NCBI GenBank assembly: GCA_023247755.1
Contig: JAHFFX010000001.1
Location: forward strand, 1-56,510
From: Candidatus Omnitrophota bacterium
GTDB taxonomy: Bacteria > Omnitrophota > Gorgyraeia > Zapsychrales > JAHFFX01
Direction of reading: 5' to 3'
DNA length: 56,510 bases
Each line of letters opens with the position of its first letter. The first letter of the stretch is position 1. The notes under the pieces are model-generated. The model was not told the DNA's origin. It saw only the letters and a list, made by a program, of their open reading frames with translations, and searched no databases. Shown here piece by piece: positions 4,685 to 48,038 of this stretch. Made by a program: the position numbers and the translations under genes.

Positions 4685-4693
4685 GAAGTAGAG

Positions 4694-4766
4694 TGGCGGC
4701 GATAGGATTTAAACCTATGACCTGTCGGGTATGAACCGAATGCTCTATCAGCTGAGCTACGCCGCC
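4694..4766 (-). tRNA. tRNA with CAT anticodon (elongator Met or lysidine-modified Ile2; not initiator)
   Basis: Minus strand GGCGGCG TA GCTC AGCTGATA GAGC A TTCGG TTCATAC CCGAC AGGTC ATAGG TTTAAAT CCTAT CGCCGCC A folds into a 73-nt cloverleaf. G1:C72 is paired and there is no GGG/CCC anticodon stem, so it is not an initiator. CCA is not encoded. Confidence 0.9.
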
Positions 4767-4867: not shown

Positions 4868-5212
4868 TCAGATCCTCCACTCCACCAGCTTCGAATCATT
4901 GAAGTAGAGCTTCACGGGCTTAAAGTCGTTCGCCTCTTCCTTGGAGACGGGCACGTTCATGTACGTCCAAATTTCGATACTGCTCTCGGAAAAGCCGGAC
5001 TGGAAAATGTCGTTCGGTTCGCCAAAAAGCGTCCGCACCGTTGAGGGCGCGGTGCCTTTGCCGATCGTCTTTCTCTGCAGGGCCGCGATGAGATCCTCAT
5101 ATTGTTTCTTGCGGTCCTGGATCGCGGTCAGTTTCTTCTCCTTCTCATCGGTGGCGCATCCGGTCAAGGGCAGCAAGGAGAGCATTAGTAAGCACAAAAT
5201 GATTTTTCTCAT
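4868..5212 (-). CDS. small lipoprotein (possibly BamE/SmpA-OmlA-like)
   Basis: Start refined to MRKIILCLLMLSLLPLTGC (lipobox LTG|C) at 5212, with GAGGGGGG about 10 nt upstream. The mature part is ~95 aa ending ..VKLYFNDSKLVEWRI. The family assignment is tentative. Confidence 0.6.
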   Translation of the reverse strand: MRKIILCLLMLSLLPLTGCATDEKEKKLTAIQDRKKQYEDLIAALQRKTIGKGTAPSTVRTLFGEPNDIFQSGFSESSIEIWTYMNVPVSKEEANDFKPVKLYFNDSKLVEWRI

Positions 5213-5231
5213 GATCAATGCCCCCCTCGTT

Positions 5232-5537
5232 TCAAACCACAAAGAATATGATATAGACGAGCCCCAGGATGATCAGGAGGCTCATGAAATAGAAATCGTT
5301 GAAGTACAGCGCGTCGCGAACGCGTTCGGACAGGGTATATTCGAGCTGGACGTTCTCGACCGCCACGGTCCCGCTTTTGCGGATACTGAGGACCTCGTTC
5401 TTTTTGAGGCGCAAGAACTGCTCGGCGATCTTATAAGCCTTGAGATTTCCCTCTTTTACGAGGTCCATGACCTTTTTTTCGGAAATGCCCAACAGCTGGG
5501 CGGTTTCCCGGACGGTGATGAACTGGTCAGAGGTCAT
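5232..5537 (-). CDS. HTH (excisionase/MerR-like HTH_17) domain protein with C-terminal transmembrane anchor
   Basis: 101 aa. The N-terminus ITVRETAQLLGISEKKVMDLVKEGNLKAYKI matches the HTH_17 pattern. The C-terminus FYFMSLLIILGLVYIIFFVV is a hydrophobic helix. There is an ATGA overlap with the upstream bactofilin gene. Confidence 0.65.
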   Translation of the reverse strand: MTSDQFITVRETAQLLGISEKKVMDLVKEGNLKAYKIAEQFLRLKKNEVLSIRKSGTVAVENVQLEYTLSERVRDALYFNDFYFMSLLIILGLVYIIFFVV

Positions 5538-6061
5538 TTGGCCTTCCCGGTGGCCGCCCAGGAATCGATCTGATGGCGCTCAAAGACCCAGGTGTCGCCG
5601 CTGCGGCTGGCGGGGATCTTTCCGTTGTTGGCTAATTCCAGAATGGTCGGCTGGTCGATCTCGAGGTACTTGCTGAGTTCATCGAGGTCCAGGAATTCCT
5701 CCAGCATCTGGCAGCGTCCCTGGAAAATGGCGCCCTCAACGATGTTGAGCTTGGGGGTCGAGATGTTCCCGGTAAGGACCGCCGTCGGCATGAGGACCAG
5801 CATCTTTTTGGCGATGATGTCGCCTTTGACCTTGCCGGCGATCACGATGTTCTCACCGCTGATGTGCGCTTCGACGGTGGCGGCGCTTCCGATGGTGAGC
5901 GTTCCCTTGGTCTCCATGGTCCCGTTGAAGTTCCCGTTGATCTTGAGGTTCACCGGGTCCTTGAAGGACAGGGTCCCTTGCATTTGCGCGCTGATCTCGA
6001 TGACGCGTTCTTCCGGTTCCTTGATGTCTCTGCGGTTTAAGGCCATAGTCGCCTCCTTCAT
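5534..6061 (-). CDS. bactofilin-domain protein fused to a C-terminal HTH_17 DNA-binding domain
   Basis: 175 aa. Residues ~25-120 carry the repetitive beta-helix pattern of bactofilins (LTIGSAATVEAHISGENIVIAGKVKGDIIAKKMLVLMPTAVLTGNISTPKLNIVEGAIFQGRCQM). The C-terminus LDELSKYLEIDQPTILELANNGKIPASRSGDTWVFERHQIDSW is HTH_17-like. Confidence 0.7.
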   Translation of the reverse strand: MKEATMALNRRDIKEPEERVIEISAQMQGTLSFKDPVNLKINGNFNGTMETKGTLTIGSAATVEAHISGENIVIAGKVKGDIIAKKMLVLMPTAVLTGNISTPKLNIVEGAIFQGRCQMLEEFLDLDELSKYLEIDQPTILELANNGKIPASRSGDTWVFERHQIDSWAATGKAK

Positions 6062-6111
6062 GAGCCCCCTTGTTGGCGGGGCGATTGTCCCGGGAACCGG
6101 GATTACCTTGA

Positions 6112-6561
6112 TTAATGATTATTCCGAGAATATTCGAAGATCTTTTTTTCCACGGACCGCATGCCGATGAGCACGAACATTACGGTCGAGGTCACCATAA
6201 TGGCCGCTGTGTAGTCCCCGCTCCCCACGGACATCCCGATGCCGGAGACGATCCACAAAGTGGCGGCGGTGGTCAATCCCACGACCTGTTTGCCGCCGCG
6301 GATGATCGCGCCCGCGCACAAGAAGCCGATCCCCGTCACGATGTTGGAAATGATGCGCGTGGGATCGACCATGGGATTGTGCTTATATATATCAGAAATA
6401 TAAAATGAAGTCAACACGATGAGGCAGCTGCCCACGCCTACGAGAACGTGCGTGCGCAATCCGGCGTCCTTTTGCCGGATCTCGCGTTCGATGCCGATGA
6501 GGGCGGTCAGGAAGACCGTCAAGAATATTTTGAAAGTGCTGATCACGATATCGGAACCCAA
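6112..6561 (-). CDS. MgtC/SapB-family membrane protein
   Basis: 149 aa, multi-TM, with LIGIEREIRQKDAGLRTHVLVGVGSCL typical of the MgtC N-terminal domain. Confidence 0.8.
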   Translation of the reverse strand: MGSDIVISTFKIFLTVFLTALIGIEREIRQKDAGLRTHVLVGVGSCLIVLTSFYISDIYKHNPMVDPTRIISNIVTGIGFLCAGAIIRGGKQVVGLTTAATLWIVSGIGMSVGSGDYTAAIMVTSTVMFVLIGMRSVEKKIFEYSRNNH

Positions 6562-6594: not shown

Positions 6595-7626
6595 TCAAAA
6601 ATGTCTTTTGACGGCTCTGGGCAGATTTGAAGCTCTTTTCTTTCTGACCGGGGCCCGGTGGTGCAGAAGATGATGTCCCAGTCCGGCGATCATGGCGGCG
6701 TTGTCCAGGCACAACTGCAGCGGCGGAAAATGGACATCCACCATCTCTTCCTGCGCGCGGGCCGTGAGCCCCTTTCTTAAGGCGGAATTCGCCGCCACCC
6801 CACCGCCCACCAGCAAGGTTTTGATGTTCTTCTTGCGGCATACGGTGAAACATTTGTCGATCAGAACCTGCGTCACGCTTTTTTGGAAGGCATAAGCGAT
6901 CTTCTCGGTTGAGAACTCCTTCTCTTTCCGATGGGCGTTGACGTAGTAAAGCACGGCGGTCTTGATGCCGCTGAAACTGAAATCAAAGGAATCGGGAAGT
7001 TCGGCACAGGGGAATCGGATCTCGCTGTTCTCCCCTTGCTGGGCCAGCCGGTCGATGGCGGGTCCTCCCGGATAACCCAGATCAAGGATCTTGGCCACTT
7101 TGTCGAAGGCCTCCCCGGCGGCGTCATCCCTGGTCTGTCCGAGCAGCAGGCATCTGGGCCAGTGGCGCACCACAAAAAGGCTGGAATGTCCTCCCGAGAC
7201 CACCAGTCCGACCGCCGGCAGGGACGGAGGATCTTCCGCGTTGTTCGTTGCATCCAGCTTCTTAAGAAAATTGGCGTAAAGATGGGCATGGATATGATCG
7301 ACTTCGACCAGAGGTTTGCGGGTGGCACAGGCCAACGCCCTGGCGAAAGAAATCCCCACCAGTAAGGACCCCGCCAGGCCGGGCGAACGGGTGACGGCGA
7401 TGGCGTCGATGTTCTTGAGGGAAGAATGCGATTCGTCCAGCGCTTGTTCAACGACGGAATTGATGTATTCGAGCTGCCGTCGTGAGGCGATCTCCGGAAT
7501 GATCCCGCCGAATTTCCGGTGTTGCGCGAGGCTCGAAGCCACGACGTTCGAGTGGATCCATCTCCCGTCCGTGACCACGGCCGCGGAGGTCTCATCGCAG
7601 GAAGTCTCTATGCCCAGGATGTTCAT
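6595..7626 (-). CDS. tsaD: tRNA N6-adenosine threonylcarbamoyltransferase (Kae1/Gcp)
   Basis: 343 aa with MNILGIETSCDETSAAVV, VDHIHAHLY and VVSGGHS motifs. Confidence 0.95.
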   Translation of the reverse strand: MNILGIETSCDETSAAVVTDGRWIHSNVVASSLAQHRKFGGIIPEIASRRQLEYINSVVEQALDESHSSLKNIDAIAVTRSPGLAGSLLVGISFARALACATRKPLVEVDHIHAHLYANFLKKLDATNNAEDPPSLPAVGLVVSGGHSSLFVVRHWPRCLLLGQTRDDAAGEAFDKVAKILDLGYPGGPAIDRLAQQGENSEIRFPCAELPDSFDFSFSGIKTAVLYYVNAHRKEKEFSTEKIAYAFQKSVTQVLIDKCFTVCRKKNIKTLLVGGGVAANSALRKGLTARAQEEMVDVHFPPLQLCLDNAAMIAGLGHHLLHHRAPVRKKRASNLPRAVKRHF

Positions 7627-46282: not shown

Positions 46283-47857
46283 TTATTCGCAGTCGATCTT
46301 AAAAGCCGTCACCTGATAATTTTCCATGGGTTGAGCATTGGCGGAGAGTTCAACCTTGTGGAAATTCTTCGCAAAGAAAGGGTCGGTTTTTAACTTCACT
46401 TTGTAGTTATTGAGGAGGCGTAGCTGTTGATTAGGGTTGCTGTCGTAAGCATAGCCGGTGAAATTCAAGGTAATCCGATAGGTCATTTTTTGTTGGTCAG
46501 CTTCCGATTCGGCCGGGAGTCCCCATAAGAAGTTGAGCTCGGCTTTGGTGATATCCACATATTGGACCTGCAGATTGCTGAGCCAAACCCCCGGGGGAAG
46601 AGTTTTCGGAATCTTGGTAAGCAGGAAAGTCATGTGGCTGGTGGTGCGGATGGTTTTATAATCGTCCAGTCTGTCCTGAACAGATTTGATCTTCTCTTCG
46701 ATCTGCTCAACGGGAAGATCTTTGAAAATCCCTCCCTGTTCGGTAAGCTTTTGCAATTTGCTTTTTGAACCGCCGATCAATAAGTTGCTTCCGACGAAAG
46801 CCATGATCAATAGCCCTGCGCAGACGCCGGCGGTCTTGGCTATCGCGAGGATATTTTCTTTTGACAGCTTGAATTGGAACTCGGATTTTGACGTTTTGCT
46901 CACCGGTTGCGTCAAAAAGTCAAACTTTATCGCGAGCGGCACCGAATCCCGCAGGCTCACGCCGAAGGCGTTGAGCAGATCGATGGAGACGACCTCCGGC
47001 AAGTTAAGGGTCTCTTTGACTCCAACGGAAGTCGCGGGGATCCCCAGATCATTGCCGATATTTTGGGCCATTTCGGCGGATTCGGTCTCTGACACGGTGA
47101 TGATGCTGGTGACCTTTTCTTGATTGTATTGGCGGCCGTAATAATCCAGCGAGATGCGGATTTCGTTGAAAAGGCGGGCGTTGGCAATCTCCGGATCGGC
47201 GTCCTCTTTGGTCTGGTTCGCCGGGGACAACTTGAAGTCCCGGATGAACTGGGGCATCCCGTGATCGACGATGGTGATTTTTCCTTCCTTCTGGTTAGTT
47301 TCCACAACGGCGATTTTCTGGTCCAGGGGAAGTTTGTTCTTGAAGATGAGAACCCGCACCAAACTTAAGGACGACGGCTCGATGAAGGTGACCTTTAGGC
47401 CGGCTTGTCCAAGGACGTTGCAGTATTTATACAGGATGTCGTTGCGGGCCGCGACGAAGAGCACGCGGATCTTGCGGATGGCCTTTTCGTTAAACGTTAC
47501 CGGATGAAATGTATAAGCAACCTCCTCCAGTTTGAAGGGGATATATTTTCTCGCTTCGAATTCGACCACGTTCTTGACCTCGCTGGCATGCACCCAGGGG
47601 ATCACAAAGGAACGGAATATGATGTCCTTGGCGGGGATCGCCAGACTGGCATCGCCGGGCAGTATCTTTTGTTCACGCAGGTTCTTTTGGATCAGGGCGG
47701 TGATGCGGATCTCCTCGGGAACGTCTTTGCTCGCAGCGCTGGGCTGCGGTTCGAAGAGACTGTGGGGGGCGGAAAAATACTTGGCCGGAGTTTGATTTTC
47801 CGACTCCACGATGGAGAAGATTTGATTGCCGAAATGGACTCCCAGCCTTTTAGTCAT
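46283..47857 (-). CDS. PilM (actin-like ATPase fold) - PilN fusion protein
   Basis: Start refined to MTKRLGVHFGN (ATG at 47857). An ~330-aa PilM-like cytoplasmic domain is followed by a single TM (ILAIAKTAGVCAGLLIMAFVGSNLLIGG) and a ~170-aa PilN/GspL-periplasmic-like domain. Confidence 0.7.
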   Translation of the reverse strand: MTKRLGVHFGNQIFSIVESENQTPAKYFSAPHSLFEPQPSAASKDVPEEIRITALIQKNLREQKILPGDASLAIPAKDIIFRSFVIPWVHASEVKNVVEFEARKYIPFKLEEVAYTFHPVTFNEKAIRKIRVLFVAARNDILYKYCNVLGQAGLKVTFIEPSSLSLVRVLIFKNKLPLDQKIAVVETNQKEGKITIVDHGMPQFIRDFKLSPANQTKEDADPEIANARLFNEIRISLDYYGRQYNQEKVTSIITVSETESAEMAQNIGNDLGIPATSVGVKETLNLPEVVSIDLLNAFGVSLRDSVPLAIKFDFLTQPVSKTSKSEFQFKLSKENILAIAKTAGVCAGLLIMAFVGSNLLIGGSKSKLQKLTEQGGIFKDLPVEQIEEKIKSVQDRLDDYKTIRTTSHMTFLLTKIPKTLPPGVWLSNLQVQYVDITKAELNFLWGLPAESEADQQKMTYRITLNFTGYAYDSNPNQQLRLLNNYKVKLKTDPFFAKNFHKVELSANAQPMENYQVTAFKIDCE

Positions 47858-48038
47858 GATTTTGCGAAGAGGTTCGGGTTTGCGACCGAAGCCAGCGGTC
47901 GATCTCTTTTTTGTCAAAACGCCAGACGCCGCCGATCTTCATGCCCGTTATCTTATTGTCGCTGAGCCAGTTATAAATCGTCTGCTTTTTAAGCTTAAGA
48001 TAGCGGGCCAATTCCCCAACGTCCATGAGATGACGCAT
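47850..48038 (-). CDS. small stand-alone HTH_17 (excisionase/AlpA-like) DNA-binding protein heading the pilus operon
   Basis: 62 aa from MRHLMDVGELARYLKLKKQTIYNWLSDNKITGMKIGGVWRFDKKEIDRWL. There is an 8-nt overlap with pilMN. Confidence 0.65.
   Translation of the reverse strand: MRHLMDVGELARYLKLKKQTIYNWLSDNKITGMKIGGVWRFDKKEIDRWLRSQTRTSSQNHD

Follow-up and report, generated by a model that had tools for sequence, protein, structure and literature searches.

A bactofilin fused to a winged helix and its tail-anchored winged-helix partner form a conserved two-gene core in Omnitrophota

We analysed a 56,510-nucleotide stretch of a Candidatus Omnitrophota genome (GenBank assembly GCA_023247755.1, contig JAHFFX010000001.1, positions 1 to 56,510; hereafter the window), in which three consecutive reverse-strand genes, here called A, B and C, encode respectively a bactofilin fused to a domain of winged helix-turn-helix (wHTH) type, a small wHTH protein with a carboxy-terminal membrane anchor, and a lipoprotein (Table 1). 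An original prediction, made from the sequence of the window, had described the open reading frame (ORF) at 5534-6061 as a bactofilin joined to an HTH_17 domain, followed through an ATGA overlap by a 101-aa protein with an amino-terminal HTH_17 domain and a carboxy-terminal transmembrane helix, and 19 nt further on by a lipobox lipoprotein. This architecture was recovered in every part.

Table 1. Features of the A-B-C locus and related features in the window (coordinates are window positions; ORF residues count from the first codon of the open frame)
Feature	Position	Strand	Basis
Gene A, encoding the bactofilin-wHTH fusion, 170 aa with the probable start at Met6	5534..6046	(-)	Pfam PF04519 + PF12728
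Shine-Dalgarno sequence AAGGAGG, 5 nt 5' of the Met6 ATG of A (6046-6044)	6052..6058	(-)	read from sequence
N-terminal peptide MALNRRD of A, candidate membrane-targeting sequence	6026..6046	(-)	logo of 263 orthologs
Bactofilin beta-helix domain of A, ORF residues 20-118	5708..6004	(-)	PF04519
Acidic excisionase/BldC-type winged helix (HTH_17) of A, ORF residues 123-171	5549..5695	(-)	PF12728
Gene B, tail-anchored wHTH protein, 101 aa, start overlaps stop of A (ATGA)	5232..5537	(-)	ORF
HTH_17 domain of B, residues 7-50	5388..5519	(-)	PF12728 E 1.5e-8, 35.2 bits (cut-off 27)
Juxtamembrane motif of B, E-R-x-x-D-F-(F/W)-Y-F-N-D-F-Y (window ERVRDALYFNDFY), predicted helical	5289..5327	(-)	column conservation 74-99%
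C-terminal transmembrane helix of B, residues 84-101, without extracytoplasmic domain	5235..5288	(-)	Kyte-Doolittle
Gene C, lipoprotein, 114 aa, lipobox LTGC (Cys19)	4868..5212	(-)	ORF
mgtC-family membrane protein gene, 50 nt 5' of A	6112..6561	(-)	PF02308 E 2.1e-38
tsaD, head of the conserved tsaD-(mgtC)-A-B string	6595..7626	(-)	PF00814 E 1.4e-82; synteny
tRNA-Met(CAT), directly 3' of C, same strand	4693..4766	(-)	ARAGORN
Stand-alone canonical HTH_17 paralog, charge +5, K-K-Q-T-I-Y-N-W recognition helix, upstream of pilM/pilO	47850..48038	(-)	PF12728 E 6.7e-16

The fusion protein and its coupled partner

Both Pfam domains of A scored above their cut-offs, the bactofilin profile with E 4.8e-24 and 84.9 bits (cut-off 27.9) and a match spanning positions 2-98 of its 98, and HTH_17 with E 1.4e-9 and 38.5 bits (cut-off 27), the two being separated by about four residues in the taxonomic order to which the window belongs. 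The family TIGR01764 ('excise') was above its own cut-off for both A and B. An AlphaFold2 model of A computed from an 82-row alignment, with a mean predicted local distance difference test (pLDDT) of 80.9 and a predicted template modelling score (pTM) of 0.60, comprises a beta-helix with a pLDDT of about 90 over residues 15-110 and a winged helix of beta-alpha-alpha-beta-beta-alpha topology with a pLDDT of about 77. When this predicted structure was searched against the PDB with Foldseek, the first domain matched BacA (2n3d) with a template modelling (TM) score of 0.87 and a root-mean-square deviation (rmsd) of 1.7, and the T. thermophilus bactofilin TtBac (6rib) with a TM score of 0.77. The best structural matches of the second domain were BldC 6ama and 6amk (TM score 0.75-0.80, rmsd 1.5-1.7 A), with further matches to RdfS, Pukovnik Xis, Tn916 Xis, CbpM, RacA and pSK1 Par, and the fold check proposed with the original prediction thus favoured both domain assignments.

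Canonical bactofilins (C. crescentus BacA, 2n3d; TtBac, 6ria/6rib) have in common with A not only the right-handed beta-helix core but also a hydrophobic residue at the C-terminal polymerisation interface. Phe113 of A (ORF numbering) aligns with Phe105 of TtBac, a residue of that interface, and across 267 orthologs the position is occupied by F (58%), L (31%) or I (10%), and is hydrophobic in 99%; the substitutions F105R in TtBac and F130R in BacA are known to give non-polymerising mutants. The resemblance ends at the C-terminus, where canonical bactofilins carry a short, disordered and poorly conserved tail and A instead has a folded, highly conserved wHTH, and A, unlike canonical bactofilins, has an obligate membrane-anchored partner gene. 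By profile search A is the sole bactofilin of this 91%-complete genome.

The open frame of A would encode 175 aa, but the protein most likely starts at Met6 rather than at the first codon of the frame, and thus comprises 170 aa, because 98% of the orthologs (n=267) have their first residue in the Met6 column and a perfect Shine-Dalgarno sequence, AAGGAGG, lies 5 nt upstream of that codon. The longest ORF overshoots this start by five codons (6044-6061), and the AAGGAGG lies inside them. From Met6, the window protein begins MALNRRD, and the consensus of 263 orthologs is M-A-(F/L)-(K/R)-(K/R)-(K/R)-K (for example MAFKKKL); in 76% one of positions 2-4 is hydrophobic and about three K/R come after it. 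In being short, basic and, in most orthologs, partly hydrophobic, this peptide is similar to the one at the N-terminus of canonical bactofilins, which reads MFSKKKK as against MA[F/L]KKK in A; in that global consensus for the bactofilin membrane-targeting sequence (MTS), targeting is due to the hydrophobic residues at the N-terminus and to two of the lysines (PMC12448750). The N-terminus of A resembles this MTS and is a candidate for membrane targeting, so that A may reach the membrane by itself, in which case B would be a client or co-anchor and not the sole anchor. A parallel is offered by PbpC and BacA, where a membrane-bound client exists alongside an MTS-bearing bactofilin and, when over-produced, is able to replace the MTS of BacA. 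Four A orthologs carry a single in-frame stop and are otherwise intact (G037:C1 TAA, G415:C12 TGA, G373:C10 TGA and G392:C4 TAG); assembly errors, pseudogenes and recoding are all possible explanations.

The junction between A and B reads ...GCC AAA TGA / ATG ACC..., and in orthologs it is often an ATGA or another short overlap. The wing of the B winged helix, Y-K-I-G-G-x-Y-L-R-F-K-K, is conserved, its Arg43 being invariant, and the B HTH profile matched Pukovnik Xis (4j2n) with E 2.8e-6. The winged helices of A and B are homologous to one another (hhalign probability 98%, identity 17%), and the description of B as a membrane-tethered paralog of the fused domain is therefore well founded. In 300 of 300 B orthologs the last 32 residues contain a C-terminal transmembrane segment, by the criterion that a 19-residue Kyte-Doolittle window exceed 1.6. 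Immediately before it, the juxtamembrane motif forms a helix (267-277) with pLDDT >80 in an ortholog model. In one ortholog (L036, genome G081) the linker between the HTH and the transmembrane helix contains a tandem repeat, SFWERS three times and then SFWDR. A weak match of B to MamR (25.7 bits against a cut-off of 100) reflects generic HTH_17 similarity.

The layout of B is reminiscent of RodZ, a bitopic membrane protein whose cytoplasmic HTH sits on a cytoskeletal polymer, MreB, instead of on DNA. RodZ, however, combines an XRE-type HTH_25 with a mid-protein transmembrane helix and a periplasmic RodZ_C domain, whereas in B an HTH_17 is paired with a tail anchor at the very end, and a Pfam scan of B gave no HTH_25 or RodZ_C match. 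The genome encodes MreB, ParB and, on another contig, a genuine RodZ (HTH_25 + RodZ_C), and the presence of RodZ and MreB rules out B as a RodZ substitute.

DNA contacts in the two winged helices

Given that the winged helix of A is most similar in structure to BldC, and shares its beta-alpha-alpha-beta-beta-alpha topology with BldC and the excisionases (RdfS 8dgl, Pukovnik Xis 4j2n, Tn916 Xis), all of which function as oligomers or filaments of wHTH units, the structure of BldC on DNA provides a reference for the contacts that a DNA-binding domain of this kind would be expected to retain. In that structure K26 and R30 read bases, T27, T29, K33 and W31 lie on phosphates, and H46, R47 and R48 of the wing fill the minor groove, and either R30A or H46E abolishes binding (PMC5859096). 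We transferred these positions onto the 267 orthologs through profile alignments.

In A, the Trp equivalent to W31 is kept in 64% of the orthologs, and K or R occupies the R48 position in 65% (Val in the window), but the R30 position is Glu or Asp in 87%, and conserved counterparts of K26, T29 and K33 were not found in the 267 orthologs. In B, K26 is kept in 57% and R48 in 100%, the latter being the invariant Arg, and R30 is replaced by D/E in 67%, W31 by Leu and K33 by Glu/Asp. The phosphate contacts T27, T29 and K33 are lost in both proteins. Where BldC is basic and has nine DNA-contact residues, A is acidic and keeps only the Trp and, in part, one basic residue of the wing, and B keeps only K26 and the wing Arg. 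The net charge of the A wHTH in the window is -6 over the matched segment and -5 over residues 124-171, and across the 267 orthologs it averages -2.8 with a maximum of +1; that of the B wHTH averages +1.75 and ranges from -5 to +6. These values are charge counts, not surface calculations, and they place the two winged helices at opposite charge.

The same genome supplies an internal comparison in three stand-alone HTH_17 paralogs, which carry net charges of +5, +5 and +2, keep the equivalents of T27, W31 and R48, and have Tyr at the T29 position, that is, a T-x-Y-x-W recognition helix together with a wing Arg. The profile of A itself matches these three domains at E 4e-19 to 1e-11. One of them is the further HTH_17 protein that the original prediction had placed at the head of a pilus operon, and it does lie directly upstream of PilM- and PilO-family genes. 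Because these paralogs are basic and have kept the contacts just named, the A wHTH is, on sequence grounds, clearly a relative of ordinary HTH_17 proteins that has undergone a reversal of charge. Canonical DNA binding by A appears unlikely because the domain is acidic and most of the BldC contact residues have been lost, and its features suggest a module for docking on proteins rather than one for binding DNA. For B the corresponding signal is ambiguous, and any DNA binding would be mediated by the wing at most. A defence-system reading of the HTH was also considered and set aside, the NCBIfam MADS1/MAD1 match (42 bits against a cut-off of 80) being generic HTH_17 similarity. In a representative library we noted a 231-aa protein (P0164) with three tandem canonical HTH_17 domains, each of the form ...EVA.Y(V/L).(L/I)S.(P/L).(V/I)YKLAK.G+I...G+.WEF.+.E(I/V)D.WK....

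These contacts bear directly on the proposal, made in the original prediction, that the scaffold tethers DNA to the envelope. On this reading B, or a BldC-type head-to-tail array of A and B winged helices, would bind the chromosome, and the A polymer with its B anchor would fix or organise the nucleoid at the membrane without a nucleotide cofactor. The Foldseek matches do include the DNA-architectural protein BldC, the chromosome anchor RacA, pSK1 Par, and Xis proteins and other recombination directionality factors. The invariant Arg43 of B stands at the position of BldC Arg48 and is accompanied by K/R at 36, 45 and 46, and since BldC binds DNA only as cooperative head-to-tail multimers, a polymer would present winged helices in a periodic manner. 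Against this stand the acidic character of the A wHTH in every ortholog, the Glu/Asp and Asp/Glu that replace Arg30 in A and B, the loss of T27, T29 and K33 from both and of W31 from B, and the genomic paralogs, which show what a canonical HTH_17 looks like. We regard the tether, including its direct form in which the fused domain itself holds the DNA, as unlikely, although worth keeping in view.

There are precedents for scaffold polymers that position DNA binders or the chromosome, namely BacNOP-PadC-ParAB of M. xanthus, which shows that bactofilins can organise chromosome segregation (PMC5703909), and RacA-DivIVA of B. subtilis, in which the RacA wHTH is a structural neighbour of that of A. 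Both, unlike A-B, employ a separate adaptor and DNA binder with intact basic DNA surfaces, and we found no ParA- or PadC-like gene in the A-B neighbourhood. The presence of ParB means that a standard segregation system is not missing, which counts further against the tether and leaves A-B as a substitute for ParABS unsupported.

Distribution across the phylum and the role of the module

Of 401 Omnitrophota genomes drawn from across the phylum, 357 carry a full-length A ortholog, nearly always in single copy; such an ortholog is also present in 40 of 41 close relatives, at identities of 52-87%. In a search of 5.8 billion proteins the top of the results was filled by homologs with the same two Pfam domains, of which all the named ones were from Omnitrophota, with annotations that go no further than 'polymer-forming cytoskeletal protein' or 'excisionase family DNA binding protein'. 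Scanning genomes that each represent a species yielded >575 A loci, nearly all titled Omnitrophota or given generic labels of metagenome-assembled genomes (MAGs), and an exhaustive HMMER search of 1.84 billion 50%-identity representatives returned 20 clusters at E <=1e-30, with about 25 full-length fused clusters counted. The bactofilin-wHTH architecture is thus rare globally and concentrated in Omnitrophota. The original prediction would have been refuted had the architecture proved common and already functionally annotated; it is common inside one phylum, and carries no functional annotation beyond domain names. In the literature library searched, no paper contained both 'bactofilin' and 'Omnitrophota'. 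Many of the module-bearing MAGs (L043-L122) are titled 'uncultured Planctomycetales bacterium', and one (L117) 'Lysobacterales bacterium'; these are probably placeholder or wrong labels.

To examine synteny we gathered 322 loci around A by four routes. In all 302 of the loci with >=345 nt of downstream sequence, A was followed on the same strand by a B ortholog, and A was never seen without B within Omnitrophota. The reverse is not the case. Of 20 genomes that lack A, 18 are devoid of any bactofilin domain and 13 keep a B match; in at least nine of the 13 this B is full length and its place in the string, tsaD-(mgtC)-B, is unchanged. It would appear, given that A never occurs without B and B persists alone, that the role of A needs B and not the reverse, and the retention of B in lineages without a bactofilin indicates that B has an A-independent role. 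The A-less loci that keep B in this position include L324 and L326-L332 (genomes G253, G147, G295, G126, G308, G103, G131 and G055), and in one A-less family B has a longer N-terminal extension. Thus A-B is a real and strongly conserved two-gene core of Omnitrophota; of the three-gene cassette whose conservation had been put forward for checking, this core is conserved and the lipoprotein gene is specific to one order.

The Omnitrophota are uncultured and mostly ultra-small. No match to the FtsZ/tubulin family (PF00091) was found in the genome of the window, or in 399 of the 401 Omnitrophota genomes, and 13 of 14 control genomes were matched in the same search; in the two exceptional genomes the match is to an atypical tubulin-like protein whose N-terminus is rich in lysine. 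Published surveys, working from very few genomes, count Omnitrophica among the FtsZ-bearing phyla of the Planctomycetes-Verrucomicrobia-Chlamydiae group (PMC5147048, PMC12283558). An FtsZ-less phylum makes a near-universal cytoskeletal module more interesting, and does not thereby show a role for it in division; because the phylum is essentially FtsZ-less, the module is nonetheless a prime candidate for a part in Omnitrophota division or cell organisation.

Taken with the loss of DNA contacts and the opposite charges, the strict adjacency of A and B suggested to us a two-part, membrane-associated cytoskeletal module specific to Omnitrophota, in which A would polymerise through the ends of its beta-helix. 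The A wHTH, as a degenerate acidic descendant of HTH_17 that no longer reads DNA, would serve as a docking module, and its most likely partner would be the homologous and more basic wHTH of B. With its translation coupled to that of A, and with a C-terminal tail anchor that keeps it at the membrane, B would be clustered or positioned there by the A polymer together with whatever B binds, and the BamE-like lipoprotein co-encoded in the order of the window hints at an envelope-related role. The use of this fold in protein contacts or oligomers has precedents in CbpM (itself a Foldseek match), in the head-to-tail oligomers of BldC, and in BacR, which bactofilins bind near its HTH. A membrane-linked scaffold, as the original prediction had also proposed, is the most economical reading of an architecture that is real, complete and strongly selected. 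In the specific form in which the A wHTH docks on that of B we favour it tentatively, judging it somewhat short of probable.

If the two domains do meet, a direct trace of the contact might be sought in their co-variation. We applied mean-field direct coupling analysis to 267 non-identical A+B pairs (effective number of sequences, Neff, about 187), in which the two clearly outlying pairs, B12-B23 and A81-A99, were both intra-protein and plausible. The inter-protein signal was dominated by one clade split, in which A143 W/L accompanies B38 G/A (WG 160, L/M-A 88, WA 19, LG 0). The top pairs between the winged helices, A135-B39 (the strongest) and A143-B38 (the fifth), correspond to the BldC head-to-tail interface of V23/W31 against L43'/G44', an overlap with p about 0.009 for random position sets, compared post hoc. 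Tree-based independent contrasts gave three contrasts for A143/B38, two in the same direction and none opposite, and no association between A135 and B39. Owing to the clade split, the post hoc nature of the overlap and the lack of power in the contrast test, we do not count the co-variation as evidence.

Several points weigh against a docked scaffold. The co-variation of A and B is equally well explained by one deep clade split. In ortholog L078 the two genes are naturally in frame, and when they were translated through, with the stop read as Gly, the AlphaFold2 model of A-linker-B folded all parts well (pLDDT 86.7) but had a pTM of 0.52, a value to be expected of a freely moving B no less than of a complex. 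With about four residues between beta-helix and wHTH in this order, polymerisation through the C-terminal interface could be impeded, the N-terminal motif of A falls short of the canonical MTS (some classes have MAKKK, in which the hydrophobic residue is missing), and the invariant wing Arg and basic wing of B leave room for some DNA binding. Finally, A has been lost in several lineages, and the module is therefore not indispensable.

The survival of B in the same synteny in bactofilin-less lineages, and thus its A-independent role, could be accommodated were B a membrane-tethered transcription or DNA-binding factor whose DNA face is covered by the acidic wHTH of the A polymer, so that B is kept inactive or clustered. 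The opposite charges of the two winged helices fit such a switch, as does CbpM, a MerR-fold protein inhibitor. The closest precedent is B. subtilis BacR (YhbD, DUF4004), to which the bactofilins BacE and BacF bind near the HTH, reducing its DNA binding and moving it to the membrane (PMC13649987). The likeness is that of an HTH protein encoded in a bactofilin operon; in contrast to the separate, soluble DUF4004 protein BacR, however, the Omnitrophota pair has one HTH built into the bactofilin and another on a tail-anchored protein, and DNA binding by A or B would be putative at most. Neither A nor B matched DUF4004 among Pfam matches at E up to 0.1, the sequence of B offers no release mechanism, having neither a sensor outside the cytoplasm nor an obvious protease site, canonical DNA contacts are missing from its recognition helix, and a factor anchored permanently by its tail would be confined to DNA at the membrane. 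Of the sequestration idea in the original prediction, then, the precedent stands and we keep it as a rival to the docked scaffold, but its application to B strikes us as distinctly unlikely.

It was also conceivable that the two winged helices are not coupled at all, the A wHTH recruiting some other client or packing on its own beta-helix to regulate polymerisation, and B being a mere conserved neighbour in the operon whose role at the membrane is a separate one. No B lies next to P0180, a divergent fusion of bactofilin and HTH_17 (187 aa, 32% identity, N-terminus MKFFPQKKR), B survives the loss of A, and the pTM of 0.60 of A modelled alone would permit some packing of the wHTH on the beta-helix. 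Conversely, the adjacency of A and B in 302 of 302 loci phylum-wide, the frequent start/stop overlap, the homology of the domains and the failure of A ever to occur without B within Omnitrophota make a lack of coupling very improbable. The divergent fusion lies at 1743-2306 of locus L335, on a Logan contig (SRR22388329), and is followed by a membrane protein with a weak MS_channel match.

A more far-reaching version can be imagined, in which the filament displays a periodic, BldC-like array of winged helices that pairs head-to-tail with B and binds the nucleoid or components of the division site, so that the single, near-universal bactofilin of the phylum would be a self-contained positioning device in FtsZ-independent division or chromosome anchoring. 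This is a speculative suggestion to which we give little credence, but if it is true A would be the first polymer of the bactofilin kind to carry within itself an array that binds nucleic acids or partners.

Known bactofilins are bare scaffolds that engage clients through poorly defined surfaces or disordered tails; what is new here is that a whole phylum has fused a folded adaptor onto its sole bactofilin and supplied a dedicated membrane-anchored partner. The two core proteins are small (170 and 101 aa) and constitute a genetically defined two-component system for dissecting client recognition by bactofilins. They also present an evolutionary case in which a DNA-binding fold of excisionase/MerR type has turned acidic and has probably been re-used for protein-protein contacts.

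The lipoprotein and the flanking genes

The start codon of C, an ATG at 5212, lies 19 nt 3' of the stop of B, and the signal peptide ends in L-T-G-C19, of which the cysteine is invariant in 16 homologs; the lipobox of the original prediction thus stood. Residues ~50-112 (4877-5065) form a putative domain of BamE/DUF3862 (BLIP-like) type. A profile of the 16 homologs matched PDB 3d4e (DUF3862, 'putative beta-lactamase inhibitor protein') with E 5.8e-6, and DUF3862 (PF12978) was matched by 14 of the 16 family members, with a best E of 2.3e-5, below the Pfam gathering score. BamE and DUF3192 were each matched by four of the 16; the C protein of the window gave E 0.14 and 12.4 bits with BamE (PF04355), below the cut-off of 23.2, and the family profile gave E 0.58 with OmlA (2pxg). 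Like the BamE, DUF3862 and DUF3192 lipoproteins, C has a lipobox and a length of ~100 aa, and its motif G-x-T-x-x-x-(I/V)-x-x-x-(F/Y)-G-x-P-D ... W-x-Y ... (I/V)-R-L-Y-F matches DUF3862 (3d4e) and, more weakly, BamE. Unlike BamE, however, C is restricted to one order (33 loci, all in that of the window), its matches are all below Pfam gathering scores, and membership in the beta-barrel assembly machinery complex is unsupported. On these profile matches C is probably a small lipoprotein of BamE/DUF3862 type, accessory to the core module and outside it.

A scan of the minus strand from tsaD to the tRNA gene for promoters and terminators gave nothing convincing, and for this reason we infer the operon limits. 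The 50-nt spacer between mgtC and A (6062-6111) contains a short GC palindrome, CCCGG-TT-CCCGGG, which lacks a T-run and was not called a terminator. Upstream of A, mgtC is present in ~40% of the 322 loci, and in other classes greA and acpS come after B.

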